A DNA stretch of 64,000 nucleotides, from assembly GCA_951406725.2 (NCBI GenBank), contig OX597815.1, positions 42,036,001-42,100,000 of the forward strand, in the 5' to 3' direction. Both the position numbers and the translations under genes were made by a program. The notes under the pieces are model-generated. The model saw nothing but the letters and a program-made list of their open reading frames with translations, made no database searches and was not told the origin of the DNA. Source of the DNA: Octopus vulgaris. Lineage: Eukaryota. Every line of letters starts with the position of its first letter. The first letter of the stretch is position 1. Positions 575 to 63,914 of this stretch are shown here, in pieces.

Positions 575-17380
<16,806 letters not shown>

Positions 17381-29010: not shown

Positions 29011-29151
29011 TATTTATTTTTTTACTACCTACAAGGGCTAAACATAGAGGGGACAAACAAGGACAGACAAACGGATTAAGTCCATTACATCGACTCCAGT
29101 GCGTAACTGGTACTTTATTTATCGATCCCGAAAGGATGAAAGGCAAAGTCG
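29011..29151 (-). mobile_element. Nin-type SINE 3' part
   Basis: Reverse complement of the 19080 family core and tail. Confidence 0.8.
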
Positions 29152-37992: not shown

Positions 37993-38381
37993 GGCGGCGA
38001 GCTGGCAGAATTGTTAGCACGCCGGGCGAAATGCGTAGCCGTATTTTGTCTGCCGTTACGTTCTGAGTTCAAATTCCGCCGAGGTCGACTTTGCCTTTCA
38101 TCCTTTTGGGGTCGATAAATTAAGTACCAGTTACGCACGGGGACGATGTAATCGATTTAATCCCTTTGTCTGTTCTTGTTTGTCCCCTCTATGTTTAGCC
38201 CCTTGTGAGCAATAAATAAGAAATGTTAGCATGTTTGGCGAAATGCTTAGTGGTATTTTGTCTCTTTTATGTTCTGAGTTCAAATTCTGCTGAGGTCAAC
38301 TTATCCTTTCAGGGTCGATAAATTAAGTACCAGTTGCGTACTGGGGGTCGATGTAATCGACTGGTTCCATTCCCCAAAAGA
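37993..38381 (+). mobile_element. Nested or dimeric pair of Nin-type SINEs inside one 20-bp direct repeat
   Basis: Full SINE 37993-38224 followed by a second head-truncated SINE; atattttgtccattttcaag at 37974-37993 and 38382-38401. Confidence 0.8.
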
Positions 38382-41489: not shown

Positions 41490-42354
41490 AATTTTCTAGT
41501 CATCGTTTGCCTTTTCTGCTATTTCTTTCTCCATTGTAAATTCATATAATGGGCATTCTGCCCTTATATGACCTCTTGCTCCACATAAGTAACAATTCGG
41601 CCTTCTTCCCTCTACAATTACTCCAATTGTTCTTCCATTTTCCACCTCTATATGAAAGGGAATTCGCTCGATATCTTCTATTGTGGCCATCAGCCACAAC
41701 TCGACACCGAATCCCTTCCAGTTCACGACATTGGTTTCTGTAATAGACCCCAGTTCTATTTCATCTTCAGTCGACCCTAGAATGGCTGTCACCAGCCATT
41801 CCATTTTTATCTCCGGCGGTACGTTTGGATCTTAACCCTTACGCCTCGTCTTCCTTTGTATGTAGGTAGCATTATAAAATTTTCCGCTCTAAGTACAGTG
41901 GAAGATAGCGAGGCCGCCTCTTCACTTGTGGCACACCTCACTTCTTCCCTCTGCATACATATGTCGCTTTGTCCATTATGTCACCAAGACACTTTTCTAT
42001 ATCTTCTATCGATATTTGCATTAGTTTCTTCGAGTTCCTATCCTGTGTCCTGTATATTATCGTTTTGTTGTTCCTGCTGGAGGGATCAGCTTGACGCTTT
42101 CACCCTCCCCTTTTACGTATTTCTCATATTCCTTTATTTCTTCCCTCTTAAACGTTACGTATCTTATCACAAGCGACGTGCCATTTTTCGTTGCGGTGAC
42201 CCTCGCATATGTCTCCATTACTGAGCGTCGACGTTCTATGAAAAGTAACGACAAGCAGCGGCAAGCGCCTCGCACGATTCGATCCTGTTTCGTCTCTCTC
42301 TACAATTTTTCACTCTTCTTCACACAAAAAATGTCTTAACACAGCATAACATGG
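41490..42354 (-). mobile_element. Tx1-like element A: decayed ORF1 and 5' end only
   Basis: ORFs 41496-41804 and 42057-42275 with VEGRRPNCYLCGARGHIRAEC zinc knuckle; no ORF2 or tail found. Confidence 0.8.
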
Positions 42355-42370: not shown

Positions 42371-45300
42371 TATTTCTTTATTACCCATTAACGGGCTACA
42401 CAGAACGTACAAAACAATCACGAATGATTAATACATGCTTCTGGGGTCTGTTTAAAAATTGAGTGATGAATAAAAGTTCGAATGATGAAACAATTACATA
42501 GACAAATTTACAAAATGTAGTGGGGTGGGTCTATGGACCCCACGCTCCCCGCCACGACACTTGACCTTGTGTTTTTTTCCGGCCTATCTCGCATTTGTGA
42601 GGGACCATTTATTCACCACATTTTTCCACCTTTCATTAAACACTTTCTTACTCAGACTCCTCCTCTCTAGTTTTATATGCCTTTTCAGGTGGAATTTAAA
42701 ATATTCCACCAGGCCAGAACCAGAGATGAAGTCGTCTGTTATCTTCCCTTTCATCCTTGTCTTCCATACTGCCTGTTTCGCAGTTGAAACCACAGAGAGA
42801 AAACAATTCTTACCTTCTTTCGTTAAGAAATCCGCTGGGCTGATTTTTACTATGGATTCGGCTGATAGCTGTACTCTTCCTTCACCTGACACCAGTTGTT
42901 TGGCAAAAACCCACATATCTGCCACCCCCGGACACTGCACGATCGCGTGCGAGACGGTTTCCCTGTCTCGCCCACATCTCGGACAGGTCGGGCTGACTTG
43001 GACACTGTGCCTTGCGAGTTTGTCCCGAACAGGTAAAGCTCCTCGGTAACACTGCCAAGCCAAAGACTTCTGAAAATTATCCAGGGTCTTCGGCCTGAAT
43101 GTACGTTGGAACAGACTGGCCAGCTGATTATCGTCGAAACCTAGGGTTTCCCCTAGCGTATCATCGTTACCGGCCTCTACGAACCCTCTATAAAACACTG
43201 CGGTAGAACCACTGCCGCAGGCATTGCTTGAGCGATGGAATAGTCGGAGTGCCATGCGACACTCCGTATACCACGAACCAAACTTCGATCTGCGATTATA
43301 CCAGTCTTCCCGTCCACCGAAACTGGTGAACCTGGGGAATATCTGTTTCGCCAGCGGAGACCACACCTGTTCACCATCTAGATGGAGCCATAGGTGCCTT
43401 AGCCTCAGCACATTTCTGCGCATCATTAGCCACAGCATCCCTAGTCCACCCTTTAACGGTTTTTGACAACAAATAGAGCATCTCACAAGTGGTTTCGAGC
43501 CCTTCCACAAGAAGTGAAAGAGCTGTCTCTCCAACTTGATCAACCACGAATCCGGGCAAGGCGGTAGGTGATCACCGATGCGATAAACACATTGGCTACC
43601 TCCGCCCTACCTTTCAAGGATAACCACTGCCAAGACCAAGTCTTGGCTACTGCAGCCACCTTGCTCGATACCTTGCTCTAGTTCTTCTCTATTTGGAGGT
43701 CTGGACCAAACCCAACCCTGAGCAACTTAATCGAGCCCTCCGTCCAACGTCCCACGACGCTGCCTGGAGGCATCGACTTGCCTCTCCAGGTGCTGAGTTG
43801 CAAGCCGACTGACTTTTCACGATTAACTTTTGCTCCTGTCACCGTCTCGTAAACCTCTATGGCCTTGCCTACTTTACGTAGGAGGTCCACTTCGGTCACG
43901 ATGATAGTGATGTCATCCGCGTACGCCGAAACCGACATTTCGTGTCCTGGTAGCCTCGGGATGCCGCTCAGTTTTCGCAGCAGCGGCTCAAGAGCCACTA
44001 CATACAAAAACAGGGAGAGCGGACATCCCTACCGAGTCGACGTTGTCGTACATTTCTATAATCCACCTGAGGAAGCCAAGACCCAGGCCGAACTGAGCCA
44101 GAACGGACACCAGGTAATGATGGTCGACCCTATCGAAAGCCTTTGACTGGTCTAAATGGACCACTGCCCCTCCCTTGCCGGGATCGTTATTCATTCCCTC
44201 TATCGTGTATCTAATAAGATGGAGATTATCCTGAATGGATCTGCCCGGTACGGCGCACGTTTGCGCCTTACCAATCAGTCCATTCGCGACACGCGCCAAT
44301 CTGTTCGATAACACTTTGGCCAAAATCTTCAGCTCTGCGTTAAGCAGAGTGATGGGCCTGAAATTATCAATGACATCCCCCTTGCTCCGGTCCTTCCTGG
44401 CTAGTGTCACCACTCCCAGGCGCACAGATCTGGGAATAAACCCATTCTGCTGCCAGTTTGCGTAGACGTTTGCCAGTTAGTCCCCAAACAAGTCCGGCAT
44501 ACTTTTATAAAGCTTGTAGGGCAGACCATCCAGTCCCGGCGCCTTACCCGCACCGCAGTCTGCCATGGCCTCTATTACCTCCTTAGGTGTGATTGGCTCC
44601 TCACTACACTTCGCGTCCTGCTCCGAGAGGCGCGGCAGCCCGTCGAGGAGGTCCTATCCCCCCCCCCAAAGAGCTGGGCGAAGTGCTCCTGAAAAGCTTG
44701 ACACATCTCCTCGGGCTCGTCTGTCAACTTACCCTGTTGGTTCGTCAGAGATCGAATTGTAGCATCGTTGCCACGTTGGGCTTCCACCACTCGGGCCCAT
44801 CCCGCGGCATTAATTCCTTCGCTCCCCATTGCATGTTGTCTAGCCCTGACAATGCAACCCATGTGTTTGGCTTCGAGGTGCTGGTTTAAAACCAGTCTCT
44901 TGGCCCTCACCTGAGCCACATTGCCAGTTCGCATTGCTTCCTCTAAGTCCTTAACTAGTGTACTTTCCTTCCTAGCCTCTCTAGCTACAAGATCTATACC
45001 TAATAGACTCATATTTTATGGCTCGCTTGAAGGCATACCACCATTTGTTGTCTGGATCATTAACCTAATCCTGTCACTGTACTCCTTAATTGCCAAAAGG
45101 GACGTATTAAGTTTCCAGTAACCAGGACCTCTATCTTATCTACGTCTAGCCTACAGGTGACCATCTTGTGGTCACTGTAGCTGACTATGTGGAGCTGTGG
45201 ACTCTAACTAGGTTTCTATCTACCTTCCTAATTAATATCCTGTCTATGTATGACCTTAATGATCCGTCGCTGCTTGACCATGTCCACAATGGAGCGTCCG

Positions 45301-47599
45301 GATGTTCCAGTCTATATGGATCTACCAGCTCAAAACGTCTTAGTAGATCCAGGAAGCAAGCATTTCCTTTCCTGTCTGTTCGCAATCCTTTACAGTCTAC
45401 CCGCACATCGCAGATTGTGTTGAAGTCTCCTAACATTACTAAAGGGTACGATGTACTCAGAAACTTCTCCAGATTCCGAAAATAATCACTTTCCCCTTAT
45501 TGCTGGGTGCGTAAACCGCAACCAGTCTGATTGTCTTAGGACTACTGAACGTCAAATCAACAACGACCAGCCTACCTTCTGGATCTGAAAAAATCAACTT
45601 TTTCCCAGAAACCCAGTTCTTTTTAACCAGGACCAACACCCCGCTTCCGCTGACCGCCGGGTTTGGAGAGATAATTCCCTCGTAGCCGCCGAACAACGGG
45701 AGCAGATCTCTTGGCCCCTTTAACCGGGTTTCTGTGGCAACAACATCTAGATCCCGTGACCTGATGTCATTTAGGAGGCGTCCTTGCTTCCAGCTCGACA
45801 TCAGGCCACACATTTATGCACCCTACACAAATACGAGACATTACTTACCTTTTCATTTTTTTTCTTCTCTGGTGGTCGTGGGAGGAAGTCCGCTTTAAAT
45901 AATGACTCGTGCAGGTCGAGTCGCGGACCATTAATGTCCCCCGGGTACCCCTCTCTTATTATATTAAAATTCATCATGTCAATATTGTAAACATCGACAT
46001 TTTTGGGGAGTACCCTATGTGTGTGGATTTTGTGTGCCGTTGGGATATTGTCTATTTGTTTTGTTAACCTGTCGTTTGCTTTGTTTATAGAAACGAATAC
46101 TGTCTCGTATTCTATTATTTTCTTTTTGGGGCTTTGTGGGGGTGATGGGGAGGAGAGGGAATTGCTCGGCACTGGGGAGTGGGGGTGGTTCGGGTTGGGC
46201 TGTGGGGGGGTCTTCTCTTTCTCTTTTTGTGGGGAACCATGGTTGGGTGGGGTAGATTTTTCCCCGTGTGTTTGATTTCTTTTTATATGTGCCTGGGTTG
46301 GGTGGGTTTGTGTCAACGTTTTTTCTCTTAGGAGTTTTCTTTTGCCTCACCGTTGTGTAGGCATTTTCGTCTTCCTTAGGTTTTTCTTCCTCCATCTCTT
46401 TACTCTTCTTCTCCACTTCTTCTGTCCTTTTTTCTTCCTCTTTCTTGCGGGTGGGGCATTCCATACGGATGTGTCCCTTTTCGCCACATTCGTAGCATCG
46501 AGGCGTTCACCCCTCCACCACCACCCGCAAGTTAATTTCCTCGCCGCATTGGATGCTCTCTGGGATCTCCTCCAGCGTTTCTGGGGCTGCCTGTATTATT
46601 ACATGTAGAGTCTGGCCTCTCCAATTTTCTTTTTTTATCTTTGTGATATTAACCACTCTTATTTTCCTCTCCAGCCCCATTAATAATGCTGGGAGCAGCC
46701 ACTTTACCTCAATTTCTGGTGGTATGTCCTCGATCCTTATTTTTGATGTTCTCCTCCCCAAATAAGAGGGTAGTAGAGTTATCTCGCTCGTTTTGATTGG
46801 GGTTAAGGAATGTTTTTTCGCCATTTCCTCGTCTCTAAAGTACACTTCTATAGTGGCGTACTTTTTCCCCCATGTCACATAATCTACGTCGTTCCATACC
46901 GGTTGAAGACACTTCTCCGCTTGTTCTTTTGACACCTTCTCGATCTTTTTTTCTTTTATGTAAGACTTATAAATTATAACTCTTTTGAGAGTTTCCTCTC
47001 TAATTACTTGTGGGAGGGTTGCTTTCACATTGTTCCCTTCCTTTGTGAACATTTTTTTATAATTCTCATAGTCTATTTCCTCCATCTTAATTTCTTCCAT
47101 TTTCTTTCTTGCAGCGGCTGCGAAATTGTATGTTGTGGTCTTATCATTTCCTTTGGAAGGCGAACCTTCAATCACTTCGGTTGCTTTCACAACTTCATCG
47201 GAAGGCGAACCTTCAGCAACTTTAGCTGTTTTTACAGCTTTTTCAGCAGGCGAACCTTCGACAATTTTCAATTTGGTTTCATCTATTTTTGCAATTTTTG
47301 ATGTAGGCGAACCTACTACATTTTCTTTTGAGGGTGAACCTCCGTCAGACATTTTTCCATCAGACATTTTTTCAGATGAAAAGATGTTTTTGTTCATTTT
47401 TTACAGAATTATGTTTTTTTTTTTTTTTGTGCTACAACGCACAGCACTTCCCTTCATTACGGAGGGGAATAAGTGTTTTCCTGGTTCAAAACCAGTTACA
47501 GTTCAAAGTAACACTTTTTTAACAAAACAATTTTTAACAAGACAATTTAAATACAATTTCAACAATATTTCACTCACATGTGTTCGAATAATAACGACT
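42371..47599 (-). mobile_element. Tx1-like element B, near full length, multiply frameshifted
   Basis: ORF1 47397 to ~45801 (CCHC knuckle across a frameshift); ORF2 from 45841 with APE endonuclease (GDFN), RT (SAYADD) and C-terminal CPRC..H...C; TSD tgtcagtatgactgcc at 42355-42370 and 47600-47615. Confidence 0.93.
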
Positions 47600-47615
47600 T
47601 GTCAGTATGACTGCC

Positions 47616-50600
47616 ACCAGGCCAGAGATCATGGTGTCTGTCATTACATTTTTCATTCTGGTCTTCCAAATAACCTCTTTAGCAACTGTTACTATCACGA
47701 CAAAGCAATGCTTACCTTCGTTTGTCAAGAAACCAGGCAAGTCAATTTTTAAAATTGACTCAGACGACAGCTGTGCTCATATTCCGTCTGACAACAGGTG
47801 TTCTGCATAGGCCCACACGTCCGAAATTTCCGGACACTGAACAATAGCGTGCAGGACTGTTTCCACATCCTGCTCGCATCTTGGACAGTTCGATGGTCCA
47901 CCGTGACCATGTCTTGTGAGCCTATCCCGAACGGGTAAGGCTCCTCTAACATTGCCAGGCCAAGGACTTCTGAAAGTTATTCAACGTCCTCGGTCCGAAT
48001 GTCCTTTGGGACAGGCTGTCTAACTGATTATTATCGGGACCCAAGGCCCTTCCCAGGGCATTGTCATTTCCGGCCTCTACCAACCTACTATAAAAAGCTG
48101 CGGTAATACCAAAGCCACCGGCATTGCCCGACTTGCGGAAGTAGAAGAGGGTTTTATGGCACTCTGAATACCACATACTCGACCTAAGTCTGCGACGATA
48201 CCAGGTTTCTCTACAATCAAAACTGGCAAAGCTGGGGAACATCTGCCTCGCGAGCGGGGACCACACCCGTTCACCATCCAGGTAGAGCCAAAGATGCCTC
48301 AACCTCAGCGCATGTTTGCGCATCAACAGCCAAGGCATCTCTAACCCACCCTTTAACGGCTTCTGACAGCAAATAGAACGTCTTACAAGAGGAGGGGAAC
48401 CCTTCCACAGAAAGCGAAAGATTTGCCTCTCCATCTTGCTCAACCACGAATCCGGACAAGGAACGACGGTTAGGCGGTAAGTGATGACCGATGCTATAAA
48501 CACATTGGCCACCTCCGCCCTCCCTTTCAAGGATAGCCACCGCCAAGACCAAGTCTCGACCGCGTAAGCCACCTTGCTCGCCACCTCAGACCAGTTCTTT
48601 TCTATCTGGAGATCTGGACCAAGCCAGATCCCTAGCAATTTAACCGGGCCCTCCGTCCAGCATCCCAATATGCTATTCGAAGGCATCGACTTGCCCCTCC
48701 AGGTGCCGAGTTGCAAGCCGACTGACTTTTCAACTCGTGCCCATCCGGCAGCCCTAATACCCTCGCTCCCCATTGCGCGGAGTCTAGCTCTGACGATACA
48801 ACCCATGTGTTTGGCTTCGAGGTGCTGGTTTAATTCCAGTCTCTTCAGCCTAACCTGGGCCCCATCGCCAGATCTCATGGCTTCCTCTAAGGCCTTAACT
48901 AGCCCCTTTTCTTCTCTACGCCCCCCACTAGCTACTAGTCCTATGCTATATGTAATGGACTCGTATTTAATGGCTCTCTTGAGGGCGTACCACCATTTTT
49001 TGTTAATAATGGAACCGGTTAACGCCCTCTGAATTAATAACTTAATCCAGCTTCTGAAATCCTTAATAGCCAAAAGGGACTTATTGAGTTTCCAGTAACC
49101 GAATCCCTTACTACATAACTTATCTAGGTGCAGTTTACCAGTGACCATCTTGTGATCACTGTAACTGACCGGGTGAAGCTGTGGACACTTAACTATGACT
49201 TTATCTATTTTTCTAATGAGAATCCTATCTATATAAGACTTGACAGACCCGTCGCTGTTTGACCACGTCCACTGTGGAGCGTTCGGGAATTCAAGTCTGT
49301 AGGGATCTACCAGCTGAAAGCGACTTAGTAGATCCCGGAAGCCACTGTTTGGTTTCCTATCGTTAGAGCCAACGCCATCGACATGCGCATTGACAATAGC
49401 GTTAAAGTCCCCTAGCATGTCTATGGATTTTGACGTGCCAAGAAACTTCTCTAGGTCTCGAAAATAATCAGTCTGATGTGAATTAGGTGCGTACACCGCC
49501 ACTAGCCTGATTTCCTTACCACAACTGAACTTCAGATCTAAGACGACCAGCCTACCTTCTGAGTCAGAAAGAATTAACTTTTTCTCTGAGACTCGATTTC
49601 TTTTGAGTAAGACCAATACCGCCGTCCAGGAGAAATAAATTTCTCGTAGCCATCCGGGAGCGGGAGTAGATCTCTTGGGCCTTCCACTCGAGTCTCAGTA
49701 GCAACAACAACATCTAAATCCTGCTACCTGGTATCATTTAAGAAACGCCCTTGTTTCCAGTTCGATATCAGGCCGCGCACATTTAAGCAACCTACATGAA
49801 CTACCATAATTCACCTACCTTGTTCATCTGGGTCCGGAGGACGTGGGGAACCCGCCTCTTCTACTTCTTGGGCCCGTGGAATCGGCAGGTTGGTGTTGTT
49901 ATTTTTTGCATCTCGCTTTGTGTCTTCTGCTCTCATTCTCGAGGGGCAGACATCTTTCCTGAAATCGTTTACTTATTGGTTGTACGTCTTCTGACCCATT
50001 TTGTAACTTCTCCATTCGCTTGCCGCTTCTTCTATCTCTATTTCTTCTATATGATGAGTTTCTATTCTCCTCATAATCTCTCTGTTAGATGACCTCATTG
50101 CTACGTACACTTGGTCGTCTGTAGCTTTCTCTGGCTTTTTCGCCTTTTTAATTTCTCTTGCTTTTTCACCTCTTATTTTCTCCAGGGAGGGGTTTTTATG
50201 CTTTCTTTTTTTGGTTTGAGTCCATCCCTCCCCTTCTTCTGGTATAGGTGTCGTTTCCAGTGGTACTTCAGGGTCAGTGTGTTCTTCAGTCCTTTTTTCT
50301 TCTTCTGCCGGCTTACAATTTTTCCTCAGGTGCCCCTTTTTTCCCCGCAAGCGAAGCACCTGGGCTGTCGGCCTTCAACCATAACTGGTAGACGGTTGTC
50401 ACCGATTTCGATAATCTCACTTATCTCTTCTAGCACGGCCGGTTCTTCTTGCAGAATTACTTTCACCTTTTGGTCGTGCCAGTATTTAGTCTCTTCCACC
50501 GTTGCATCTCTAATCTCTAGTCTCTCCTCTAGGCCCAAAGTAATTGCTGCGACTATCTGCTCCGGTTCGATTTTCCGGCGGATCATTCGCTATGGTTACT

Positions 50601-51471
50601 TTGGACATCCTTCTGCCCTTATAGATGGGCAGAAGCGTCACTATTTCCGTTTTCAGTGGGTTCATTGAGTGAAGCCTTGCTTCCTCCTCGTACTCGAACC
50701 ATACCTCTATTGTGCCGTACCTTTTCCCCCCTTGCAATGTATTTTACTTTGCTCCAAATAGGCTCGAGGCATGCCTCCACTTCTCTTTCTGCTGTAAATT
50801 CGATCTTCTTTTCTTTGCTTCTATATGTTTTATATATGATTGTTTTTCTTTCTACATTCTCTTTTACTTCTCTTGGTTGTACGATTTTTGTCTCGTATCC
50901 TTCTTTTTTCATATCCTTTTTGAGTTCCTCTAGGTTTGTGAGTTCGATTTTCTTTTCCTTGGTGCCTGCTGCTTCTGCGAAATTCAGCTGTTTTTTCGCT
51001 AGACTAGGCACATCTATGTTCTTTCGAACCTGCAGCCTTTTTTTCTCATTTTTGTTTTCGTTCTCCTCAGAGTCTGAAAGCAACTTCAATTCGCCGATTC
51101 TTTCCAACTCCTCTTCTGTTTTTTCTGGGCTAACCGCAGTTTGGCTAGCCGTTTTTCCTGGTCTCGCCATGATTTTGCTTGCCGTTTTTCCTGAGCTTTG
51201 GCTTGCTGTTTTCGCCATAATTTGGTTTGGCATTTTTCCTGGGCTTACCATAATTCAGCTTGCCGTTTTCTCTGGTCTCGCCGCAATTAGGTTTGCCGTC
51301 CTTCCCGGGCTGGCCATAATTTGGCCTACCCTCACAGGCAGTTCTTTCACAGAAATAACAAGAGTTTTTAACAATTTTTAACAATATCCCAAAATAAAGG
51401 TAATCCAACAAAGGTAATCCAATAATGGCACGGTAAACAATACAAATAATACTTCCAACTCGACAGTCACG
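47616..51471 (-). mobile_element. Tx1-like element C: RT domain deleted in frame, 3' end missing
   Basis: ORF 47946-49616 joins AAGWARVE directly to KSVGLQLGTW; frameshifted ORF1 ~51317-49800 with 10-aa repeats and zinc knuckle. Confidence 0.92.
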
Positions 51472-51762
51472 TTTAAGAAACACACTATTTCTTTATTACC
51501 CACAAAGGGCCAACGAAGAGGGGGACAACACATGATTTGGGGTCATGAAACAGATGAAATTTACATATAAATGAACTTTAAAATATTTTTACATGAAATA
51601 ACAAAAATCGAAGAAATCGAATGATACACAATTTCTTTTTTATTTTTTTATTTTTTTAAACAGCACGACATAAAAAGAACACATGAAGTGGGAACACCAG
51701 GATTGCCGACCCCACGAGCCCTGTTTTTCCCACCGAAACTCGGCAGCCAACTTACAGCGTGT

Positions 51763-54700
51763 TCACGTGGCCCCTTTCACTCGCAGCAATCGTGCCACAC
51801 GTTTCCATATTTTGTCAAACTCACACGCAGACAGACACCTTTTCTCTAACTCCACCTTTCTTTTTAGGTGGAACCCGAAAAAGATCACCAAGGCGGAGCC
51901 AGAGATCATGGTGCCTGTCTTTACCGCTTTCATTCTAGTCTTCCATATACACTCTTTCGCTACTGCTACTGTACTGAGAAAGCAATGCTTACCTTCACTT
52001 GTCAAAAAGCTAGGCGAGTCAATTTTTATAATTGTCTCAGCCGATAGCTGTACTCTTCTTCCGTCTGACAACAGGTGTTCCGCATATACCCACACATCCG
52101 AAACTTCCGGACACTGAACAATAGCGTGCGAGACTGTTTCCAGATCCCGCTCGCATCTTGGTCAGTTCAATGGTCCACTCCAACCATACTTTGTGAGTTT
52201 ATTCCGAACGGGTAAAGCTCCTCTGAAACATTGCCAGGTCAAAGACCTCTGGAAGTTATCCAATGTCTTCGGCCCGAACGTCCTTCGGAACAGGCTGTCT
52301 AACTGATTTCGATCGAGGCCCAAGGTCCTTCCTAAGGCATCGTCATTTCCGGCCTCTACCAACCTGCTATAGAAAGCTGCGGTGGTACCAAAGCCGCCGG
52401 CATTGCCCGACTTGCGGAAGTGGCAGAGTGCCTTATGGCACTCCGAATACCACATGCTCGATCTAAGTCTACGACGATACCAGGTTTCTCTGCCACCGAA
52501 ACTGACAAAGCTGGGGAACATCTGCCTCGCAAGCGGGGACCACACCCGTTCACCATCCAGGTAGAGCCAAAGATGCCTTAACCTCAGCGCATCTCTGCGC
52601 ATCATCAGCCAATGCATCCCTAAGCCACCCTTTAACGGTTTCTGACAGCAAATAGAACGTCTTACAAGAGGAGTGCTTCCCTTCCACAAAAAGTGGAAGA
52701 TCCGCCTCTCCAACTTGCTTAACCATGAATCCGGACAAGGGACGACGGTCAGGCGGTAGGTGATGACCGATGCTAAAAACACATTGGCCACCTCCGCCCT
52801 CCCTTTCAAGGATAGCCACCGTCCGGACCAAGTCCTGACTGCGTGAGCCACCTTGCCCGTCACCTCAGACCAGTTCTTTTCTATCTGGAGATCTGGACCA
52901 AACCAGATCCCTAGCAGCTTAACCGGGCCCTCCGTCCAGCATCCCACGATGCTATTCGAAGGCATCGACTTGCCCCTCCAGGTGCCGAGTTGCAAGCCGA
53001 CCGATTTTTCACGGTTAATCTTTGCTCCTGTCGCCGTCTTGTAAGCCTTGATGGCATCTCCCACATTACGTAGGAGTTCCACCTCGGTCTCGATGATGGT
53101 GATGTCGTCCGCATACGATGTTACAGATCCTCCACCTCCTGGATTCATCGGGATGGCGCTCAGCTTTCGCAGCAATGGCTCGAGAGCCATCACATACAAA
53201 ATCGAGGAGAGTGGACACCCTTGACGGACAGACTGTCTGATGCGGAACGGCTTCGAAAGGAAGCCATTCACCCGAACGATCGAGTCGATGTTATCGTACA
53301 ATTGTATGATCCACCTGAGGAAGCCAACACCCAGACCGAACTGCGCCAGCACGGACACCAGGTACCGATGGTTCACCCTATCAAACGCTTTACTCTGGTC
53401 TAAATGGACCAGTGCCCCACCTTTGCCAGAGTCATTCCCAAACCTCTCTATTGTGTAGCGTACTAGGTGAAGATTGTCCTGGTTGGTTCTTCCAGGGACC
53501 GCACAAGTTTGTGCCTCCCAGATCAGACCACCCGCGACACGCGTCAACCTTTTCGCTAGCACCTTGGCCAAAATCTTCATCTGTGTTTAGCAGAGTGATG
53601 GGCCGAAAGTTGTCTATGTTGTCCCCCTTGCTCTGGTCCTTTCTGATCAGCGTCACCACTCCCCGATGTACAGATCTGGGAATGAACCCATTCTGTCGCC
53701 AGTTCGCGAAGACGCCGGCCAGCACGTTCCCGAACAAGTCTGGCATTCTTTTATATAGCTCGTAAGGTAAACCATCAATCCCCGGCGCCTTACCTTCACC
53801 GCAGTCGACCAAGACCTCAGCTATCTCCTCAGGCTAGATCGACGCTTCACAGCTCTCCGCGTCTTGCCCCGAGAGGCGCGGCAACCCGGCGAGGATGTCC
53901 GTTAGGTCCACCCTCTCCTCCGGCCCGCCGTCGCCCCCAAAGAGCCGAGCGAAATGCTCCTGAAACGTCCGACACATCTCCTCTGGTTCGGTGATCACAT
54001 CGCCTTGCCCGCTCGTCACAGACTTAATTGTGGAATCGTTTCCACGTTGAGCCTCCACAACTCGTGCCCATCCGGCAGCCTTAATACCCTCGCACCCCAT
54101 TGCGCGAATTCTAGCTCTGACGATACAACCCATATGTTTGGCTTCGAGGTGCTGGTTCAACTCCAGTCTCTTCAGCCTAACCTGGGCTCCATCGCCAGCT
54201 CTCATGGCTTCCTCTAAGGCCTTAACTAGCCCCATCTCTTTCCTACGCCCACTAGTTGCCAGACCTATACTGTATCTAACGGACTCGTACTTGATGGCTC
54301 TTTTGAGGGCGTACCACCATTTGTTATTAATAATGAAACCGGTTAACGCCCTCTTCACTAATAACTCGATCCGGTTTCTGTACTCCTCAATAGCCAGAAG
54401 GGACTTATTGAGTTTCCAGTAGCCGAATCCCTTACTACCTAACTTATTTAGGTTCAGTTCACCAGTGACGATCTTGTGATCGCTGTAACTGACCATGTGA
54501 AACTGTGGACACTTAACTAATCCTTTATCTATTTTTCTAATAAAAATTCTGTCTATGTAGGACCTGACAGACCCGTCGCCACTTGACCACGTCCACTGTG
54601 GAGCGTTCGGGAATTCAAGTCTGTAGGGATCTACCAGCTGAAAGCGACTCAGTAGATCCCGGAAGCCAGGGTTTGGTTTTCTATCTTTTGAGCCAACGCC

Positions 54701-55147
54701 ATCGACGCGCGCATCGACTATGGCATTAAAGTCCCCTAGCATGACTATGGATTTTGACGTGCCAAGAAACTTCTCCAGGTCCCGATAAAAATCAGTCTGA
54801 CTCGAATTAGGTGCGTATACTGCTACCAGCCTGATTTCTTTACCACAACTGAACGTCAGATCTAAGACGACCAGCCTACCTTCTGAATCAGAAAAAATTA
54901 ACTTTTTCTCTGAGACACTATCTTTTTTATGCAGGACCAACACCCCACTCCCGCCCACATGCCGTCCAGGAGAAATAAATCTCTCGTAATCGTCCATGAG
55001 CGGGAGTAGATCTCTTGGCTCTTCGATTCGTGTCTCAGTAGCTACAATTACATTTAAATTCTGCGACCTGATATCGTTTAGTAAACGACCTTGTTTCCAG
55101 TTCGCTACCAGGCCGCGCACATTTATACAACCAACGTAAACAGCCAT
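51763..55147 (-). pseudogene. Element D ORF2 (APE endonuclease, RT, zf-RVT), frameshifted
   Basis: Segments 53834-55147 (INVRG, GDFN, YIDRI, SDH), 53432-53812 (KAPGIDG, FRPITLLN), 52162-53580 (LDQSKAFDRV, QGCPLS, SYADD) and 51763-52095; some frameshifts may be assembly errors. Confidence 0.9.
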
Positions 55148-56499
55148 AGTTTGCTTACCTTATTTCCTCTGGGTCCGGCCGACGGGGGGGAATCCGTCTC
55201 TTCTGCCTCCGGGGACCGTGGAATCGGCGAGTTGCTGTTCTTCTTTTCTACATCCTTCAGGGCATCCCCCTTGCTCATTCTGGATGGGCCTACATCTTTT
55301 CTGAAATCATTTGCTAACGTGTTGAACCCTCTCTGTCCCATCACGTAGCATCTCCAATCTCCACATCTCTCTTCCATCTCCACCTCCTCGATGTGTTGTG
55401 TCTCCACTCTACGCATCACTTCTCTGTTTGCGGTGTTCATCGCAACATATACCTTGTTTTCCTTCTCCGGCTTCTTCGCTTTCTTCACCTCTCTCTTCTC
55501 TTTGCTTATGGTTTTCTCCGGGGAGGGGTTATTGTGTTTTCGTTTTGTAGCAGCAACCTGTGACCACCCCTCCCCTACTTCTGTTGCAGGTGTTGTTTCT
55601 GTTGCCGCCACTTGAGAACTTGGCTTTGTGGGTTCGCCCTTCTCCTTCTCCGCCGGCTTGCAGTCTTTCTTGATGTGGCCCTTCTTGCCACAGGTGAAAC
55701 ACCTGGGCTTCCGGCCCTCCACCATTACTGCCATCCGGCTCTCCCCGATCTCGATAACCTCGCCTATCTCTTCCAAGACGTCCGGCTCGGCCTGTATAAT
55801 AATCCTTACCTTCTGTCCCTGCCACTTTTTGGCATCTTCCACAGTGGCATCGCGAATTTCTATTTTTTCCTCCAGCCCTGCAGTGACTCCAGCCACTATT
55901 AGTTCGGGCTCAACCTCTGGCGGTATGTTAGCAATTGTTATCCTCGAGATGCGCCTTCCTCTATAAATAGGGAGAAGGGTTATTGTCTCTGTTTTCAGGG
56001 GTTTCATGGACTGCTCCCTTGCTTCTTCCTCTGTTCTGAATCTGGTTTCCACCGTACCATATCTTTTACCCCTGGTTAAAAATATGATTTTTTCCCAGAT
56101 GGGTTGTATGCAAGCCTCCACTTCCTTTTCCGAAGAAAAGTCTATCTTCCTTTCCTTATTTCTGTATGTTTTGTACACTATCGTCTTTCTCTCTATCTCT
56201 TCGCGAGATTCTTGTGTCTGATGTAGTTTAATTTCATACCCGCTTCTGGATACTGTTTTTTTCGCTGCTTCTAGTTTGGTCAGATCTATTTTTCTTCCTT
56301 TTGGGCTAGCCGCTTCGGCGAAGTTTAACGTTTTCCTTGCCACGCTTGGCACATCTATATCCCTTTGTACCGCATTTCTGGTTCCCCTACTTTCCTCTTC
56401 GTCCGAGGAAAAGCCGGGTATAGCTGTTATTCTTTCTAGGCTGGACATCTCTGGACTCTGGGTTTGGTCCTCCGTTCTGTCCGCCTTCGGGCTGGCCAT
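55123..56499 (-). CDS. Element D ORF1 (gag-like nucleic-acid-binding protein, RRM-like region plus single CCHC knuckle)
   Basis: Uninterrupted ORF from MASPKA; CFTCGKKGHIKKDC; overlaps ORF2 start by 25 nt. Confidence 0.88.
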   Translation of the reverse strand: MASPKADRTEDQTQSPEMSSLERITAIPGFSSDEEESRGTRNAVQRDIDVPSVARKTLNFAEAASPKGRKIDLTKLEAAKKTVSRSGYEIKLHQTQESREEIERKTIVYKTYRNKERKIDFSSEKEVEACIQPIWEKIIFLTRGKRYGTVETRFRTEEEAREQSMKPLKTETITLLPIYRGRRISRITIANIPPEVEPELIVAGVTAGLEEKIEIRDATVEDAKKWQGQKVRIIIQAEPDVLEEIGEVIEIGESRMAVMVEGRKPRCFTCGKKGHIKKDCKPAEKEKGEPTKPSSQVAATETTPATEVGEGWSQVAATKRKHNNPSPEKTISKEKREVKKAKKPEKENKVYVAMNTANREVMRRVETQHIEEVEMEERCGDWRCYVMGQRGFNTLANDFRKDVGPSRMSKGDALKDVEKKNSNSPIPRSPEAEETDSPPSAGPRGNKVSKLWLFTLVV

Positions 56500-56699
56500 T
56501 ATTGGCCTACCCCTCGTCAGCGGCTTCACTAATATTAGTCAAATAAAATTCGACTAACAAATTCAAAAACAACTTACTTTTTCTTTTTGTTTTTTTTTTT
56601 CTTTTTTCACAATTAACAGCTGGTAATAGAACACACTGACAAAATTTTCACGAGCCGAAAAAAACACGACTGCGACAAGGAATCATTTGAGAAACACAC

Positions 56700-58347
56700 T
56701 ATTTCTTTATTACCCACCAGGGGCGACGAAGAGGGGACATAACAAAACATTGGGGACATAGAACAATATGATTAAAATTATGAGCAAATGAATTATAAAA
56801 TGAAAAAATGATAATATGAAAGCAATGCTAACGGCCCCATCCGCCAGCATCACTTACCTGTCCTTTATCACCCATTTCCCATTACAATTCCAAACTTTTT
56901 TATCACACTCTTCGTTTCTCTTTCATACCTCTCTATCATTTCATCCTTCATTGGCGCTGTCATCCATTTTATACGCACTTCGTTACACTTGTTCACCAAT
57001 GAGTCCATAAGTTCATCTTCAAACACCGCGTAACTACCGTCTTCATGCTCTTGCCATACGTCATTATGAAAAATCCTTTTTGAGTTCTCGGTGTCCCCCC
57101 TCCTCACAACACATAAAAAGTAGGTCTTGGGCCTTTGTTTGTTCTGTGTGTCTGTTTTTGTTTTTCTTGTAGGCGGGGAGCGGGTGGAATCGCTGTTTGC
57201 AGGGGAAGGATGGGACTCCAAGGGTGTGGGTGGTGTTGGGGTGGGTTGGGGCTTCGCACTGTTTTCTTTTTACCTTTTTCTCTTTTTCTCTTTTTTTTCC
57301 ACTCTTGCTGGATATTCTCCTCTTCAGTTGCTTCCCTTTCTGTTAGGTTCTCCTTTTCTTTGGTATCTTCCTTCATTTGGGGCTCCGTGACGACTTCCTT
57401 TTCCTTTGGTGGGGGAGGGCAGTAGGCTCTTATGTGACACCTCAGGCCACACTTATAGCACCTGGGCGCCCTACCCTCCACCCACACTCTCATAATAATG
57501 TTCCCAGTTCTTATAGTATCCGTCAGCCTTTCTATTATTTCCGCCTCCGTCTGTATGTTCATGTCTAATGTGGCACCTCTCACGCCTTCGTATTTCATAG
57601 TGGCGTGGAGGATGTCCACTTTATCTTCGTTTCCCTTGATCACCGCAGCCGTTATATATTCACCCTCTAGGTGTGGAGGTATTCCCTCCACCCTAATTCT
57701 TGTGGTCCTTCTATTTAAATACGAGGGTAGCAAGTATATTTTTTCCGTTCTCACCACCTTGGCTGCTATATTCCTGGCAACGTTCTCGCTTCTATATTGT
57801 ACTGTTACCGTTCCGTACTCCAATTCTCTTGTCAGGTAAACTATTTCCTCTCCAGTCTGTTTCAAAGCCTCTTCAATGGCTTCCATATTAATTATTTCCA
57901 TTTTTTTTCCTCCATTCATATATACTCTATATTTGATGGTTCTACGATTGAACCACTCGCCGCGCCCTGCTGGAGGCGACAGCTCGACCTCTCCGTTCTC
58001 CTCCTCCTTCATAAACTCCTGGAAGCCCGGCAACTTAGCCAGGTCCACCTCTTTTTCTATCGACTTCCTCGTTATTCCTGCGTAGGTACTTTCCATCTTT
58101 TCCACCGTTCTCTCCAACTCCTCCTCAGATGTCGATATTTCCGACGAACTTTCAGATAAATTCCTTCCGGCCATCTCATCCGTATGGGAGAGGCGGCTCA
58201 TAATCGCCTCAGACCGAAAAACGGCCGCCCGAACAGAAACAGTGCGACGCGCAGAACCAGCGCGACGCGAAACCGCACCAACCGAAGTTCAAAACTCCAC
58301 AACAACAACAATACTTTTTGTTCTTTTTTGCCGAATTCTACGAGCCG
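56700..58347 (-). mobile_element. Element E: ORF1-only non-autonomous Tx1-like element
   Basis: ORF 57104-58201 plus frameshifted C-terminus to 56868 with CYKCGLRCHIRAYC; ~170-nt 3' UTR ending in the shared tail; shared 5' motif acgagccgaaaaaacacgac; no ORF2 sequence. Confidence 0.9.
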
Positions 58348-58360
58348 AAAAAACACGACC

Positions 58361-61300
58361 TATTTCTTTATTACCCACTAGGGGCCACATAGATGGGACA
58401 ATACAATCTGATGATGGGGTCAGACACACGAATGGGTTTTACAAAAAAGCGAATTTTAAAAATTTACAGAAATTTACAAAAATAGCAAGAAATCGAATGT
58501 TGGAACAGACCGGAAGACATTACGGGTGGAGTGGGTGCGGGTTTAGCTCTGACCCCACGAGCCCCGCCTCCCCACTGATACTTTTGGTTTCGTTTGGTTT
58601 TACATTTATGTTGTATCATTCACTCGCAACTTTCGTGCTACATCTTTCCATCGTTCTTCATACACTCTCTTAGTCAGGCATATTCTCTCCAGCCCTATCT
58701 TCCTTTTCAGGTGAAAGATGAAATAATTCATCAAACCAGGGCCGGAGATGAACTTGCCTGACTGTAGACCTTTCATTCTCGTCTTCCATATCACCTCTTT
58801 CGCAATTGCTACTACAACGAGAAAACGAAACTTACCTTCATTCGCGAGGAAATCCGGTGGGTCAATTTTTGTAATCGACTCAGTCGACAGCTGTACTCTT
58901 CGTGTACTTGACAACAGCTGTTCGGCATAAACCCACACCTCAGACACGTCCGGACAATGAACAATAGCGTGCGGGACGGTTTCCCTATCCCGCCCGCATC
59001 TTGGACATATCGGACTGTCTCGGCCACCGTGCCTTGCGAGTTTATCCCGAACAGGTAGAGCTCCTCTGTAGCATTGCCATGCCAGAGACTTCTGGAAGTT
59101 GTCCAGTGTCTTCGGCTTGAACGTACGTCGGAACAGACTGGCCAGCTGATTATCGTCGAGACATAGGGTTTCCCCCAAGGTATCTTCACATTCCGCCTCT
59201 ACCAACCCTCTATAGAAGAATGTGGTGGAACCCCCACCGCAGGCGTTACCCGAGCGACGGAATAGCAGGAGAGCCTTGCGACACTCCGTGTACCAAGTAC
59301 CAAGTTTCGATCTACGATTCAGCCAGGTTTCCCATCCACCGAAACTAGTGAACTTGGGAAACATCAGTTTTGCTAGCGGAGACCACACCCGTTCACCATC
59401 CAGATAGAGCCACAGATGTCTTAACCTCAGCGCATGTCTGCGCATCATCAGCCAAGGCATCCCTAGCCCACCCTTTAACGGTTGTTGACAGCAAGTAGAG
59501 CGTTTCACAAGTGGTTTCCCGCCCTTCCACAAGAAGTAGAAGAGCTGTCTTTCCAACTTGATCAACCACGAATCAGGGCAAGGAACGACGGAAAGGCGGT
59601 AGGTGATAACCGATGCGATAAACACATTAGCCACCTCCGCCCTCCCTTTCAGGGATAGCCACCGCCAAGACCAGGTCTTGGCTATTGCAGCCACCTTGCT
59701 CGTTACCTCGCCCCAATTCTTCTCTATTTGGAGGTCTGGACCGAACTAGACCCCTAGCAATTTAATCGGACCCTCCGTCCAACGTCCCACGACGCTGTCA
59801 GGAGGCATCGACTTGCCTCTCCAGGTGCCGAGTTGCAAGCCGACTGACTTTTCGCGATTAACTTTTGCTCCTGTCACCGTCTCGTAAACCTCTATGGCCT
59901 TGCCTACTTTACATAGGTGGTCCATTTCGGTTACGATGATGGTGATGTCATCCGCGTACGCTGACACCGATTTTCCATTAACTGGCTGTCTCGGGATGCC
60001 GCTCAGTTTTCGCAGTAGTGGCTCAAGAGCCATCACGTACAAAAGCAGGGAGAGCGGACACCCTTGACGAACCGAGCGTTTGATTTTGAACGGCTTCGAC
60101 AAGAAGCCGTTCACCCGAACTACCGAGTCGATGTTATCATAAATTTGGATAATTCACCTGAGGAAGCCAAGGCTCAGCCCGAACTGTGCCAGAGCAGATA
60201 CCAGGTAACGATGGTCGACCCTATCAAATGCTTTAGATTGGTCTAAATGGACCAGAGCCCCACCCTTGCCAGAATCATTATTAAACCCCTCTATAGTGTA
60301 CTGCATTAGATGGAGATTATCCTGAATGGTTCTGCCCGGAACGGCACATGTCTGTGCCTCCCCGATCAGACCATCCGCGACACGCGCCAATCTTTTCGAT
60401 AACACTTTGGCCAAAATCTTCAACTCTGTGTTTAGCAGAGTGATGGGCCTGAAATTATCAATGCACTCCCCCTTGCTCGGGTCCTTTCTGACGAGTGTCA
60501 CTACTCCCCGGCGCACAGATCTGGGTATAAGCCCGTTCTGCCACCAGTTCGCATAGACCTCCGCCAGTAGGTGCCCGAACAAGTCTGGCATACTCTTATA
60601 TAACTCATAGGGTAGACCATTCAAACCCGGCGCCTTGCCCGCGCCGCAGTCCGCCATTGCCTCAACCACCTCCTCAGGCGTGATTGGCCCTTCACAGCCC
60701 TCCGCATCTCGCCCCGTTAAGCGCGGCAGCCCGTCGAGTAGGTCCGTATAGGCTCTCCTCCTATCCAGTCCGCCGCACTCACCGAAAAGCTGAGCGAAGT
60801 GCTCCTGAAAGGCCTCACACATCTCCTCGGGTTCGTTTATCAACTCACCTTGTTGGTTCGTCAAAGATCGAATCGTGGCATCGTTACCACGCTTGGCTTC
60901 CACCACTCGGGCCCATCTCACGGCGTTGATTCCTTCACATCCCATATGGCGGATCCTAGCCCTGACAATGCAGCCCATGTGTTTGGCCTCGAGGTGCTGG
61001 TTTAACACCAGTCTCTTGGACGCCACCTGAGCCGCAGAGCCAGTTTTCAAGGCTTCCTCTAATTCCTTAACTAGAGTAGTTTCCCTCCTAGCCTCTCTAG
61101 CCACTACTCCTATGCTATATCTAATTGACTCGAACTTGATGGCTCGTTTGAGGGCGTACCACCATTTGTTATTAATGATGGTACCAGATAGTGCCCTCTG
61201 AATTATATCCCTAATCCGGTCTTTGTACTCCTTAATCGCCAAAAGGGACGTATTAAGTTTCCAGTAACCGGATCCTCTATTTTTAACCTTATCTATGTCA

Positions 61301-63551
61301 AGCTTACAGGTGACCATTTTATGATCACTGTAGCTGATCGGGTAAAACTGTGGACACTTAGCTATTTTTCTGTCTACTTTTCTAATTAGTATTCTATCTA
61401 AATATGACCTGGAAGATCCGTCGCTGTTTGACCATGTCCACAATGGAGCGTTCGGAAATTCCAGCCTATAAGGATCTGCTAGCTCAAAGCGGCTTAGCAG
61501 TTCCATGAAGCCACTGTTACCTTTTCTATCTGAACGCGAGCCAACACAATCTACATCCGCTTTGCAAATTGTGTTAAAGTCTCCTAGCACAACTAATGAA
61601 TGCGAAGTACTAAGAAAGTTTTCTAGTTCACGAAAATAATCACTTTGCCCTGTATGGTTGGGTGCGTAAATTGCAACCAGTCTGATAACTTTACCGTTAC
61701 TGAACGTCAAATCCATGACGACCAGCCTACCTTTTGGATCTGCAAAAATTAACTTTTTCTCAGAAACCCGGTTTCTTTTTATTAGGACCAACACCCCACT
61801 TCCGCCAGTAGGACTGCCAGGAGAGAAAAAACTCTCGTAGCCGTCAAACAGCGGGAGTAGACCTCTTGGCCCCTCTAACCGGGTTTCTGTAGCAACAATA
61901 ACATCTAAATTACGCGACCTGATATCATGCAGGAAGCGACCTTGCTTCCAGCCTGCTCCCAGGCCGCGCACATTCAAACAAGCAACATAAATGTAATCCA
62001 TTACTTACCTTTATATCAGTGGTTCGGTTTTCTCTTTCTCTTCTTTGTTTAACTCTTTTTCAGGGCCTCGTGGGGGAGTCTGACGTAGGCCCTCGAATAT
62101 ATGTGGAGATGTCACATCCATTCTAAGTGGGCCTACGTCATGGAAGAATTCGGATTTTATCCGCCCGTAATCCTTCCGGCCTATTCTGTAAACTACATAG
62201 TCGTTCTTTTTCCCTATTCTCTCCACTTTGGCCATAGCTGCCAATACGTTCCCAAGTCTGTTATTTGATGCCTTAACGGCCATATACGAGTTCATCGACT
62301 CTCTTTTCTTTTTTAAGTTCACTCTGGGAGGGGTGGTTTCCGTTTTTCTTTTTTTTTTCTGGTGATTTTTGCCCACCCCTCCCCATTTTTCTTTTCCTCG
62401 CTCTTATTTTCCTCCGCCGCTAGTTCTGCTGCCTTTTTCACCTCCACACCTTCAGTCGTCCCTTCTGGGCCGCCCGGCGCTGCTTCTGGTGACACTTTAT
62501 CTTCTTTTTCACCTGGCTGAGGTGCTTCCTGCGGTTTGGGTTTGGGTTGGCATTCCGCCCTTACATGACCCTTCTTGCCGCAGCCGAAGCACCTCGGCTT
62601 TCTGCCCTCCACGAAAACTGTTATTCTCTCTTCCTCACTTATTTTTAAAGTTTCTGGAATTTCCTCCAGTGTTTGAACTTCCGCCTGAATGGCTATTACT
62701 ATTTTCTGTCCTTTCCAAAATTCCTCTTCCTCCACTGTGGCCTGGAGGATGTTTATTTTTTCCTCCAGGCCTACCATCACTGCTGCCACTAGACATTCGG
62801 CATCTGCCTCTGGGGGAATGTTGTTCATCGTAATTCTCGATGTTCTTTTCCCTCTATACAAGGGGAGGAGAACAATGTTCTCCGCTTTAATCGGCTCCAT
62901 AGATAGTTTTTTCGCTATCTCCTCTGTAGTGAAACGCACCTCCACTGTGCCGTATCTCTTTCCTCTGTTAATGTAAGTTATTTTGTCCATTAATGGTTTA
63001 AGACAGTTTTTTCTTCAATTTTTTGGATCATTTTTGTCGTCGTGTTGAATGTCTTATAAATTCTTTTTTTTTCTATTTCATCGTGTTTTTGGACGTTTGT
63101 GACCACTGTCACTTCCGTGCCCTCTTTTTTTACACAGTCCGCATATTTTTCCAAATCTTCTACATTTATTTTTTAAATCTTTTTACCGGTCACTTCAGAG
63201 AATTTTTTCGCTGGTGCTGGGTTTTCCTTTTTCTTTGGTGACGTCGCCTCTTTTTTCTTTGGCGACACCGCCTCTTTTTTCCTTGGCGACATCGCCGGAT
63301 ACTCCTCTTCACTCGTCACGGGAGAATCAGAGAAGGGGGACTCCATCTTGAACAGTTGGCTTCACAAGCCCTTGGTAACTTCAAGATAATTGATATTTTT
63401 CCCTCACGGAGGGGGGAACACCAACGCGAAGTCCTCGCGCGAAGGCTGACTTCGACTGTTAGACAGCAATATACAAAACAGGTAGACAAACAGTAGAGAA
63501 TAACAGATAATAATACGATAGCAAAAATATATCAACTTACAATAAACGCAA
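58361..63551 (-). mobile_element. Tx1-like element F, full length, frameshifted
   Basis: ORF1 from ATG at 63346 to ~62011 (CFGCGKKGHVRAEC); ORF2 62001-58606 in three segments with EN, RT (SAYADD) and CPRC knuckle; flanking repeat aaaaaacacgacc at 58348-58360 and 63552-63564. Confidence 0.95.
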
Positions 63552-63684
63552 AAAAAACACGACCGTTCGATTCACTTCAACATTTAAATTTAATTTGTCA
63601 AAATATTTTCGTCGCTTTGAGACCGCGACCTGTTCACTGACAAAACTTCGTGCTGCATGGTTAGATTATATGAAGTATTCTAAT

Positions 63685-63914
63685 GCGGCGAGCTGGCAGA
63701 AACGTTAACACGCTGGGCGAAATGCTTAGCGGTATTTCGTCTGCCGTTACGTTCTGGGTTCAAATTCCGCCAAGGTCGACTTTGTCTTTCATCCTTTCGG
63801 GGTCGATAAATTAAGTACCAGTTACGCACTGGGGTCGATGTTATCGACTTTATCCCTTTGTCTGTCCTTGTTTGTCCCCTCTATGTTCAGCCCCTTGTGG
63901 GTAGTAAAGAAATA
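63685..63914 (+). mobile_element. Full-length Nin-type SINE with 16-bp TSD
   Basis: TSD tatatgaagtat(t/c)cta at 63667-63682 and 63915-63930; tail gccccttgtgggtagtaaagaaata. Confidence 0.9.

Follow-up and report, generated by a model that had tools for sequence, protein, structure and literature searches.

The last ~45 nucleotides (nt) of a group of L1-group long interspersed elements (LINEs), likely of the Tx1 clade, are shared with a short interspersed element (SINE) in a 64,000-nt stretch of the Octopus vulgaris genome (GCA_951406725.2, contig OX597815.1, positions 42,036,001 to 42,100,000 of the forward strand), referred to here as the window and numbered from its first letter. The shared tail points to selection of RNA passengers by a folded structure, and not by poly(A), in these relatives of human L1. 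The observation is confirmed, and evidence from outside the window strengthens it. SINEs are well known to share tails with LINEs, the L1 group being the standard exception; what is unexpected here is the partner clade, probably Tx1 in an animal, and the absence of poly(A).

The shared 3' tail

The LINEs and their relative, element E, form an array on the minus strand, and the SINE copies are found on both strands. Features are listed below (ORF, open reading frame; UTR, untranslated region; RT, reverse transcriptase).

58361..63551, minus: element F, a two-ORF L1-group LINE, probably Tx1-type; ORF1 with zinc knuckle
62001-58606, minus: F ORF2, with APE endonuclease, RT and zf-RVT; two in-frame stops
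63564-63552 and 58360-58348: F duplication, at least 13 bp
58361..58405, minus: F tail, comprising pyrimidine run, hairpin GCCC-CTAGT-GGGT, AATAAA and end; no poly(A)
56700..58347, minus: element E, ORF1 only; ORF2 missing past the ORF1/ORF2 junction motif
56700..56744, minus: E tail, loop CTGGT
51486..56683, minus: element D, a two-ORF LINE with a stop and a frameshift
56699-56684 and 51485-51470: D flanking repeat, 16 bp with 2 mismatches, which may be a decayed duplication or a homologous 5' end shared by C and D
56670-56650: D 5' UTR, with a 20/21 copy of the E/F target
51486..51530, minus: D tail, loop TTTGT
47616..51469, minus: element C, a near relative of D; ORF2 with internal deletion; 3' end lost, no tail
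42371..47599, minus: element B, a decayed two-ORF LINE
47615-47600 and 42370-42355: B duplication, perfect, 16 bp
42371..42415, minus: B tail, 6-nt loop GTTAAT
41500..42354, minus: element A, an ORF1 fragment with zinc knuckle; 3' part lost, B at its 5' end
63685..63914, plus: full-length main SINE, antisense to the LINE array; A-box-like and B-box-like motifs in a tRNA-like head, then the shared body and a probable Tx1-type tail with loop CTTGT; duplication of 16 bp (1 mismatch)
30769..30919, plus: main SINE, 5'-truncated; 13-bp duplication directly behind the tail
19081..19300, plus: main SINE, full length; imperfect ~12-bp duplication
29015..29152, minus: main SINE, 5'-truncated; decayed tail
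37994..38380, plus: SINE dimer within one 17-20 bp duplication; main SINE (AATAAA tail variant), then a truncated sister-family copy
3785..4010, minus: sister SINE; head and body as in the main SINE (68%), other tail at 3831-3795, AGAC-CTTGT-GCCT

The pattern GCCC-N4-6-GGGTARTAAAGAAATA is matched exactly six times in the window and was absent from 100 shuffles; four of the matches are element ends (42371, 51486, 56700 and 58361, minus strand) and two are SINE ends (30919 and 63914, plus strand). When the window was searched with a profile of only the four LINE/E ends, five SINE tails were detected (E 1.4e-8 to 1.2e-4) among 10 matches in all, the best one beyond the SINE tails having E 6.7. 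Identity between SINE and LINE over the last ~45 nt is 0.67-0.80 (20 pairs) and drops to 0.35-0.54 in the adjoining 30 nt upstream, and for each of the four LINE ends the SINE-LINE tail score was reached by none of 5000 shuffles. Poly(A) is absent behind all nine tails of the window (four LINE/E, five SINE). The LINE tails contain a canonical AATAAA six bases ahead of the end; the main SINE copies contain AGTAAA in four cases out of five and AATAAA in one (copy 37994). A previous sequence-only reading of this DNA had described the tails at these places, a similarity of about 45 nt and a lack of poly(A), and all three descriptions held.

The duplications of B and F each begin directly behind AAAGAAATA, and SINE 30769 and SINE 63685 end at the same base as B and F. 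Because duplications flank these two LINEs and two SINE copies with the tail inside, the data support the tail as part of the elements and not of the target; the earlier caution that it might be pre-existing target DNA was not borne out. A clear flanking duplication was not found for E. The first base behind the tail, which belongs to the duplication, is G in all four LINE/E ends and in only two of the four SINE ends that are intact; the earlier reading had most duplications beginning with G.

The other RT element of the window (24.3-26.3 kb), which is unrelated and decayed (24250-26330, plus strand; RVT_1 E 1.8e-4), has no tail match. Pattern scans of metagenome and viral contigs returned 15 loci that were judged to be chance matches, with no LINE protein and no SINE body in any of them.

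Classification of the LINEs and element E

Pfam searches detect APE endonuclease, RT and zf-RVT domains in ORF2, and zf-CCHC in the ORF1 of D (E 3.6e-5). Among solved structures, ORF2 best matches human L1 ORF2p (E 4e-64, with R2 at E 6e-24), and its best named database match (57%) comes from Argonauta hians. A quick RT tree of 50 rows, with 4 turtle rows left out for coverage, places F and D inside a 39-row group (SH-aLRT, a likelihood-ratio branch support, 95) together with fish elements and an alligator protein named TX1, a name that is an automatic annotation and not a curated Tx1 reference. Plant L1, a Xenopus L1-like row and RTE-like rows all fall outside this group; an earlier 108-row tree separated only the L1 group from RTE-like sequences. 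Membership of the L1 group is secure from domains, structural matches and trees, and membership of the Tx1 clade is likely, so the first half of the earlier L1/Tx1 assignment stands and the second is probable. Duplications of 13-17 bp and site re-use are seen, yet there is no single conserved target. A viral scan with the ORF2 alignment found no relative.

Look-alikes of ORF1 include a ZCCHC3-type cluster at 0.90, direct alignment of the window ORF1 to fish ORF1 gave nothing beyond the zinc knuckle, and a literature search for ZCCHC3 together with Tx1 found no paper. E shares 35-38% ORF1 identity with F, D and B, and its tail shows 84-85% identity to those of F and D. HAL1 half-L1 elements, reportedly described by Bao and Jurka in 2010, are said to be non-autonomous and to carry ORF1 only. 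E resembles them in both respects, and is unlike them in having no poly(A) and in keeping a structured tail.

The F and E families are very abundant in contigs of four sequencing runs, with a high summed depth for E in two of them, although depth is not a copy number. Other ORF1 ends are joined to the 3' module of E on 7 and 3 contigs (two runs), and the F and D pieces differ by ~2-3% from their family contigs. In run X13, which is RNA by guess only, summed depth was 6294 in the F-tail bin and 385-452 in the next two bins, a difference that is not interpretable from contig depth.

Constraint and predicted folding

The LINE/E tails (last 45 nt) are 0.72-0.85 identical (6 pairs), compared with 0.58-0.68 at fourfold sites of ORF2 (3 pairs) and 0.29-0.53 in the remaining 3' UTR, the latter being close to shuffled values. 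This comparison supports conservation of the tail beyond neutral sequence, i.e. constraint. All four tails fold independently into one predicted three-part hairpin (UCU/AGA, (U)GU/AU(A) and GCCC/GGGU) that extends beyond the version first proposed, with z-scores of -0.65 to -2.47 against shuffles.

An additional pairing may be a LINE-only feature of the 3' UTR.

58414..58578, minus: upstream hairpin of F with TGGGG(TC) at 58558-58548, complementary to (GA)CCCCA at 58424-58414
51714/51545 (D), 42542/42448 (B) and 56839/56755 (E), minus: TGGGG/CCCCA counterparts

The (GA)CCCCA motif lies 56-78 nt ahead of the LINE end, with 5-11 bp of complementarity to TGGGG(TC), and the CCCCA partner is absent from the SINE. 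It is possible that the two motifs form a pseudoknot common to the LINEs and without a SINE counterpart. The extra pairs in F are partly private to that copy (place 58550), a local hairpin in B competes with the pairing, and there is no clear counterpart among the three sister-lineage UTRs listed.

A sister lineage with a related end

A scan with an alignment of 18 ORF2 relatives detected 49 loci, 43 of which are on small animal-like contigs of one bacterial metagenome-assembled genome, labelled Arenicella (G001, record CAXXMW01; L016-L056, L060, L064). These contigs, which contain arrays of Tx1-type LINEs with intact ORFs, are host contamination of a bacterial genome record. The sister-lineage ORF2 is 38-39% identical to that of F, and in the RT tree the clade adjoins the window elements with a joint-clade support of 100. 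The arrays are head-to-tail, with up to 13 units at a spacing of mostly 6.4-6.85 kb.

Each sister end consists of a pyrimidine run, AGGC-CTNGT-GCCT, a second hairpin, AATAAA and a 16-17 bp target copy. The first hairpin is followed by AATAAA in 61 of 61 matches and by poly(A) in none, the loci overlapping and comprising 16 distinct tails. Small contigs hold 67 of the 69 hairpin matches of that genome; the other 2 are on the main contig and lack AATAAA. When folded, four of four sister ends gave z-scores of -2.6 to -4.0.

The stem is AGGC/GCCT in the sister lineage and GCCC/GGGT in the window, around the same C-U-N-G-U loop. The two sets were compared in a 16-row alignment, cut by hand around the loop and leaving out B (6-nt loop), SINE 29152 and SINE 37994. 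Two of the four stem pairs are changed on both sides (C-G to G-C), and 62 of 64 cells are paired. The covariation value of 0.58 (0.25 or less in a slid alignment) corresponds to about one event per pair and is not a probability, since the rows come from two lineages. These two-sided changes support the predicted hairpin, with a loop that is conserved and a stem that appears to covary. A constant stem and a varying loop, as first described, are thus found inside the window only.

U1 small nuclear RNA (snRNA) sequences (L057:2104-2267 and 9029-9205), the downstream one without its 5' part, flank a Tx1-type element that is more distant (27.5% to F). The 3' end of this element has AATAAA and no window-type hairpin.

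SINE families

The main SINE has five copies in the window, which differ by 4-7% from their majority sequence. An A-box-like motif at +9 and a B-box-like motif at +73, with one mismatch to the consensus, are present in all three full copies, and together with the duplications these motifs qualify the element, judged by its sequence, as a tRNA-derived SINE (SINE2). ARAGORN and Rfam detected no tRNA or other RNA gene in the window, either as a SINE parent or as a target.

The label "Nin-type", applied to this SINE in the sequence-only reading, did not survive. Two core motifs of the Littorina Nin consensus (available part of the PMC4758252 supplement) are absent from the SINE, with no matches at 3 mismatches; the search, which is a motif test only, gave 2 chance matches outside the SINEs. 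The label is therefore better avoided pending comparison with a repeat library. In the available text of PMC8967140, octopus SINEs are labelled tRNA-Deu, and there may be a remote tie to Deu-type SINEs. The Meta and V domains have no resemblance to the SINE body (by eye, in a supplement excerpt), and short-word searches for the SINE in further published supplements gave no match.

At 4010-3785 and 38219, the SINE body is joined to tails other than that of the main SINE. The sole window match of a profile built from the sister-lineage ends is the tail of the sister SINE at 3831-3795 (E 3.1e-5, the next match having E 4.2), so one SINE body occurs with two tails, both traceable to this LINE lineage. 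The second tail is known from a single decayed copy, in which one pair of the hairpin is disrupted.

There are at least two further dispersed SINE-like families (15373, 16158, 24189, 35582, 38621, 38799, 7406, 32060, 28349-28450). The sequence at 28349 has its body end in common with the main SINE, and a third tail.

Proposed recognition of the tail and alternative explanations

Stringent-type Tx1 LINEs probably mobilise the SINEs and element E in trans via the tail. Such mobilisation had been suggested initially, and a tail in common between these LINEs, a tRNA-like SINE and an ORF1-only element points that way. The ORF2 protein would bind the small 3' hairpin, with its 4-bp stem and C-U-N-G-U loop, beside AAUAAA, and reverse transcription would start at a fixed point just behind hairpin and AAUAAA, leaving a target duplication of 13-17 bp. 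A tRNA-like SINE would have acquired its last ~45 nt from one such LINE and would move in trans; the sister SINE, with the same body, would have captured the tail of another branch of the lineage; and E would keep the tail and be carried likewise. The SINE loop CUUGU is one change away from each of the F, D and E loops, and therefore does not single out one partner. In the available text of PMC4176376, the loop gives specificity in the stringent zebrafish L2 and the stem is read generally. Accepted SINE-LINE pairs share 35-61 bp at 72-95% (PMC11481361, available text), and the ~45-nt tail, which matches that size range, is counted in favor of such a partnership.

Several observations weigh against this explanation. 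Folding is weak for three of the four LINE tails (z -0.65 to -1.5), four SINE tails are indistinguishable from shuffles in this respect (z -0.45 to +0.31), and the sister SINE copy fails to fold into the hairpin (z +0.58). The stem-covariation check proposed at the outset had a mixed outcome: within the window, none of nine pairs is changed on both sides, and the two changed pairs across lineages come from an alignment cut by hand around the loop, with rows from two lineages only. The sister lineage has a second hairpin between loop and AATAAA that is absent in the window elements, and the motif is absent from six more distant loci (26-34%). The divergence of the SINE copies (4-7%) compared with that of F and D (~2-3%) means that their activity need not be simultaneous. 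Finally, four contigs of run X2 diverge from the F tail at 58368, indicating that some copies end otherwise.

The alternative that survives best, although it is unlikely, is that the tail is kept as a 3'-end processing signal (AAUAAA and an upstream helper), which the SINE acquired by template switch, with relaxed mobilisation by this or another LINE. AATAAA lies at the end or at most 6 nt from it in all window LINEs and all sister ends, U- or GU-rich sequence follows several junctions, and the SINE tail folds weakly, all of which would fit. However, four of the five main SINE copies have AGTAAA and yet keep the hairpin and the exact end, and a Pol II signal would be useless to a Pol III transcript. 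In addition, two SINE families each retained a Tx1 tail, and poly(A) is never copied.

It is considerably less probable that the LINE tails derive from the SINE, captured once or as truncated SINE insertions at each LINE end. The SINE is abundant, and one copy has the LINE-like AATAAA, but the LINE tails lie inside LINE duplications without duplications of their own, and lack the 2-nt insertion of the SINE. A related end is found in the sister lineage of another host, where the SINE body was not found in the 49 loci, and the sister SINEs exchange tails at the body boundary.

The idea that the tail is pre-existing DNA into or beside which LINE and SINE insert can be all but dismissed: Tx1 elements are often site-specific (PMC4494074, available text) and each array tail is adjoined by another element, but SINE copies in unrelated flanks hold the tail within their own duplications, which refutes the idea for copies with duplications, three of three sister array 3' edges read tail, target copy and host DNA, and two independent 5'-truncated units lie behind the same 17-bp spacer.

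Comparison with known systems

Statements in this section about published work refer to the parts of each paper that were available. The nearest parallels to the octopus tail are the three SINEs with L1 tails described in maize and Chlamydomonas (Ohshima 2012, PMC3472496; 2013, PMC3747384), none of which involves Tx1 or an animal. In ZmSINE2/3 with LINE1-1_ZM (maize, sorghum) and SINEX-3_CR with L1-1_CR (Chlamydomonas), the last ~45-50 nt of an L1-clade LINE are conserved and common to a tRNA SINE. As predicted for the octopus tail, there is a hairpin with a compensatory stem and a conserved loop, and it was read as stringent recognition. The octopus case differs in being from an animal, in its probable Tx1 type, in having no terminal repeat and in having two SINE families with two tails.

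The crocodilian SINEU/Tx1-Mar system (Kojima 2015, PMC4494074) is similar in that a SINE is thought to be mobilised by Tx1 LINEs and tandem copies sandwich a target duplication. There, the link is a shared target, no LINE was found with the SINEU-1 3' end, and the elements have snRNA heads and poly(A); in contrast, the octopus SINE shares its tail with a LINE, has a tRNA-like head and does not share the target. Zebrafish ZfL2 (PMC4176376) and bivalve pairs (PMC11481361, PMC4824008) also have tails of 35-61 nt, a stem-loop, and tail swapping on one SINE body. Their partners are CR1, CR1-Zenon, L2 and Nimb, the ends are usually short repeats, and no L1-group partner is reported. The 29 "TX1" strings in PMC4176376 are mutant names and not the clade.

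In a literature search, no SINE with a tail of Tx1 or L1-group type was found for any animal; Repbase, Dfam and most subscription papers were outside that search, and the pair may be recorded there. The pair is not reported in the available parts of PMC5786205, PMC5804259, PMC4758252, PMC4824008, PMC11121367, PMC8967140, PMC13282606, PMC6007223, PMC13295347 or PMC3787270. In the published survey of Ohshima, only plant and algal SINEs have L1 tails, and strict recognition was proposed as the ancestral state. An animal Tx1 lineage that lacks poly(A), with a conserved and covarying tail hairpin and two dependent SINE families, would directly support ancestral strictness in animals, would offer a test system for how L1 lost strictness, and would name an engine for SINE families in a SINE-rich group. 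In O. vulgaris, SINEs make up 11.6%, and 13 recently active L1-Tx1 families are reported (PMC13282606).

Arrays and targeting

Each tail of the sister lineage is followed by a target copy of 16-17 bp, and all three array 3' edges that were examined read tail, spacer and host DNA (L070, L088, L096). The array in L054 has an upstream target copy at its 5' edge, and an unoccupied copy lies in a host repeat; an upstream copy was not seen at the 5' edge of the L095 array. The two independent 5'-truncated units behind one 17-bp spacer are in L039 and L045. Each array family has its own 16-17 bp spacer, matching the host flank, and of the nine spacer types counted, five have G as their first base and two have it behind one additional A. 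The 5' UTRs of L054, L030 and window element D hold stacks of old targets. On a sequencing-run contig of depth 389, a D-type tail is joined to the E/D start motif, which shows that junctions of this kind also occur at other places. Taken together, the sister arrays, their spacers and the recurring junctions indicate that arraying is a trait of the lineage without one fixed target.

R1 and R2 also form head-to-tail copies around a target copy, at one fixed rDNA target and with read-through pairing with the target. The arrays of the present lineage sandwich a target copy in the same way, but their spacer differs for each array family and matches ordinary host DNA. This argues against one fixed target, and fits guidance by the 3' flank of the RNA at least as well as a target set by ORF1 or the RNA 5' end, the initial suggestion. 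Since the terminal AATAAA would put cleavage inside the target copy, the mRNA could carry its own guide. It is tentatively suggested, with considerable doubt, that the hairpin determines which RNA is copied and the start point, and that the 3' flank of the RNA itself determines the target. If cleaved 10-30 nt behind AAUAAA, the mRNA would retain a 16-17 nt target copy, which would pair with the nicked strand at any matching site, first with the upstream copy of its parent. Co-transcription with the target can strengthen targeting, according to the available text of PMC4494074. Flank guidance, if true, would account for locus-specific spacers, stacked old targets, the lack of copied poly(A) and dispersed SINEs, and would represent an APE-type retrotransposon with a site programmed by a short RNA flank, with a bearing on programmable gene insertion. 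A loose endonuclease preference is a rival to such guidance.

For the arrays only, a possible but doubtful explanation is that a second insertion occurred by chance and that unequal crossing-over or tandem duplication, and not repeated targeted insertion, then enlarged the array. The L039 array has two identical truncated units side by side, and array units are 95-100% alike near their 5' ends, as tandem duplication would produce. However, the window array mixes families with ORF1 only 35-60% identical, B and F each have their own duplication, and the 5'-truncated units need separate insertion at the spacer.

Other features

An AG/GTAAGT sequence resembling a 5' splice site is found at the ORF1/ORF2 junction of five window elements, including E, with GTAGGT in C.

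62009-62004, 55161, 49818, 45848 and 56859 (approximate), minus: AG/GTAAGT-like 5'-splice-site motif

The motif also occurs ahead of ORF2 in the sister lineage (L019, L029, L064), and similar motifs lie behind the ORF2 stop in L029 and L053. Binding of U1 and a role in ORF2 re-initiation are conceivable functions.

A further ORF1 fragment (36550-37570, minus strand) is 56-61% identical to the ORF1 of B. This fragment and the SINE dimer (37570-38560) lie inside an apparent decayed copy of a Mariner transposase, identified by eye; the target of crocodilian Tx1-Mar is a Mariner. A 289-codon open frame at 32608-33477 (plus strand) has no Pfam match and is possibly a host exon. A long nested inverted repeat, resembling a miniature inverted-repeat transposable element, is located at 26377-27236, with a partial second copy at 40324-40622, just past the array.

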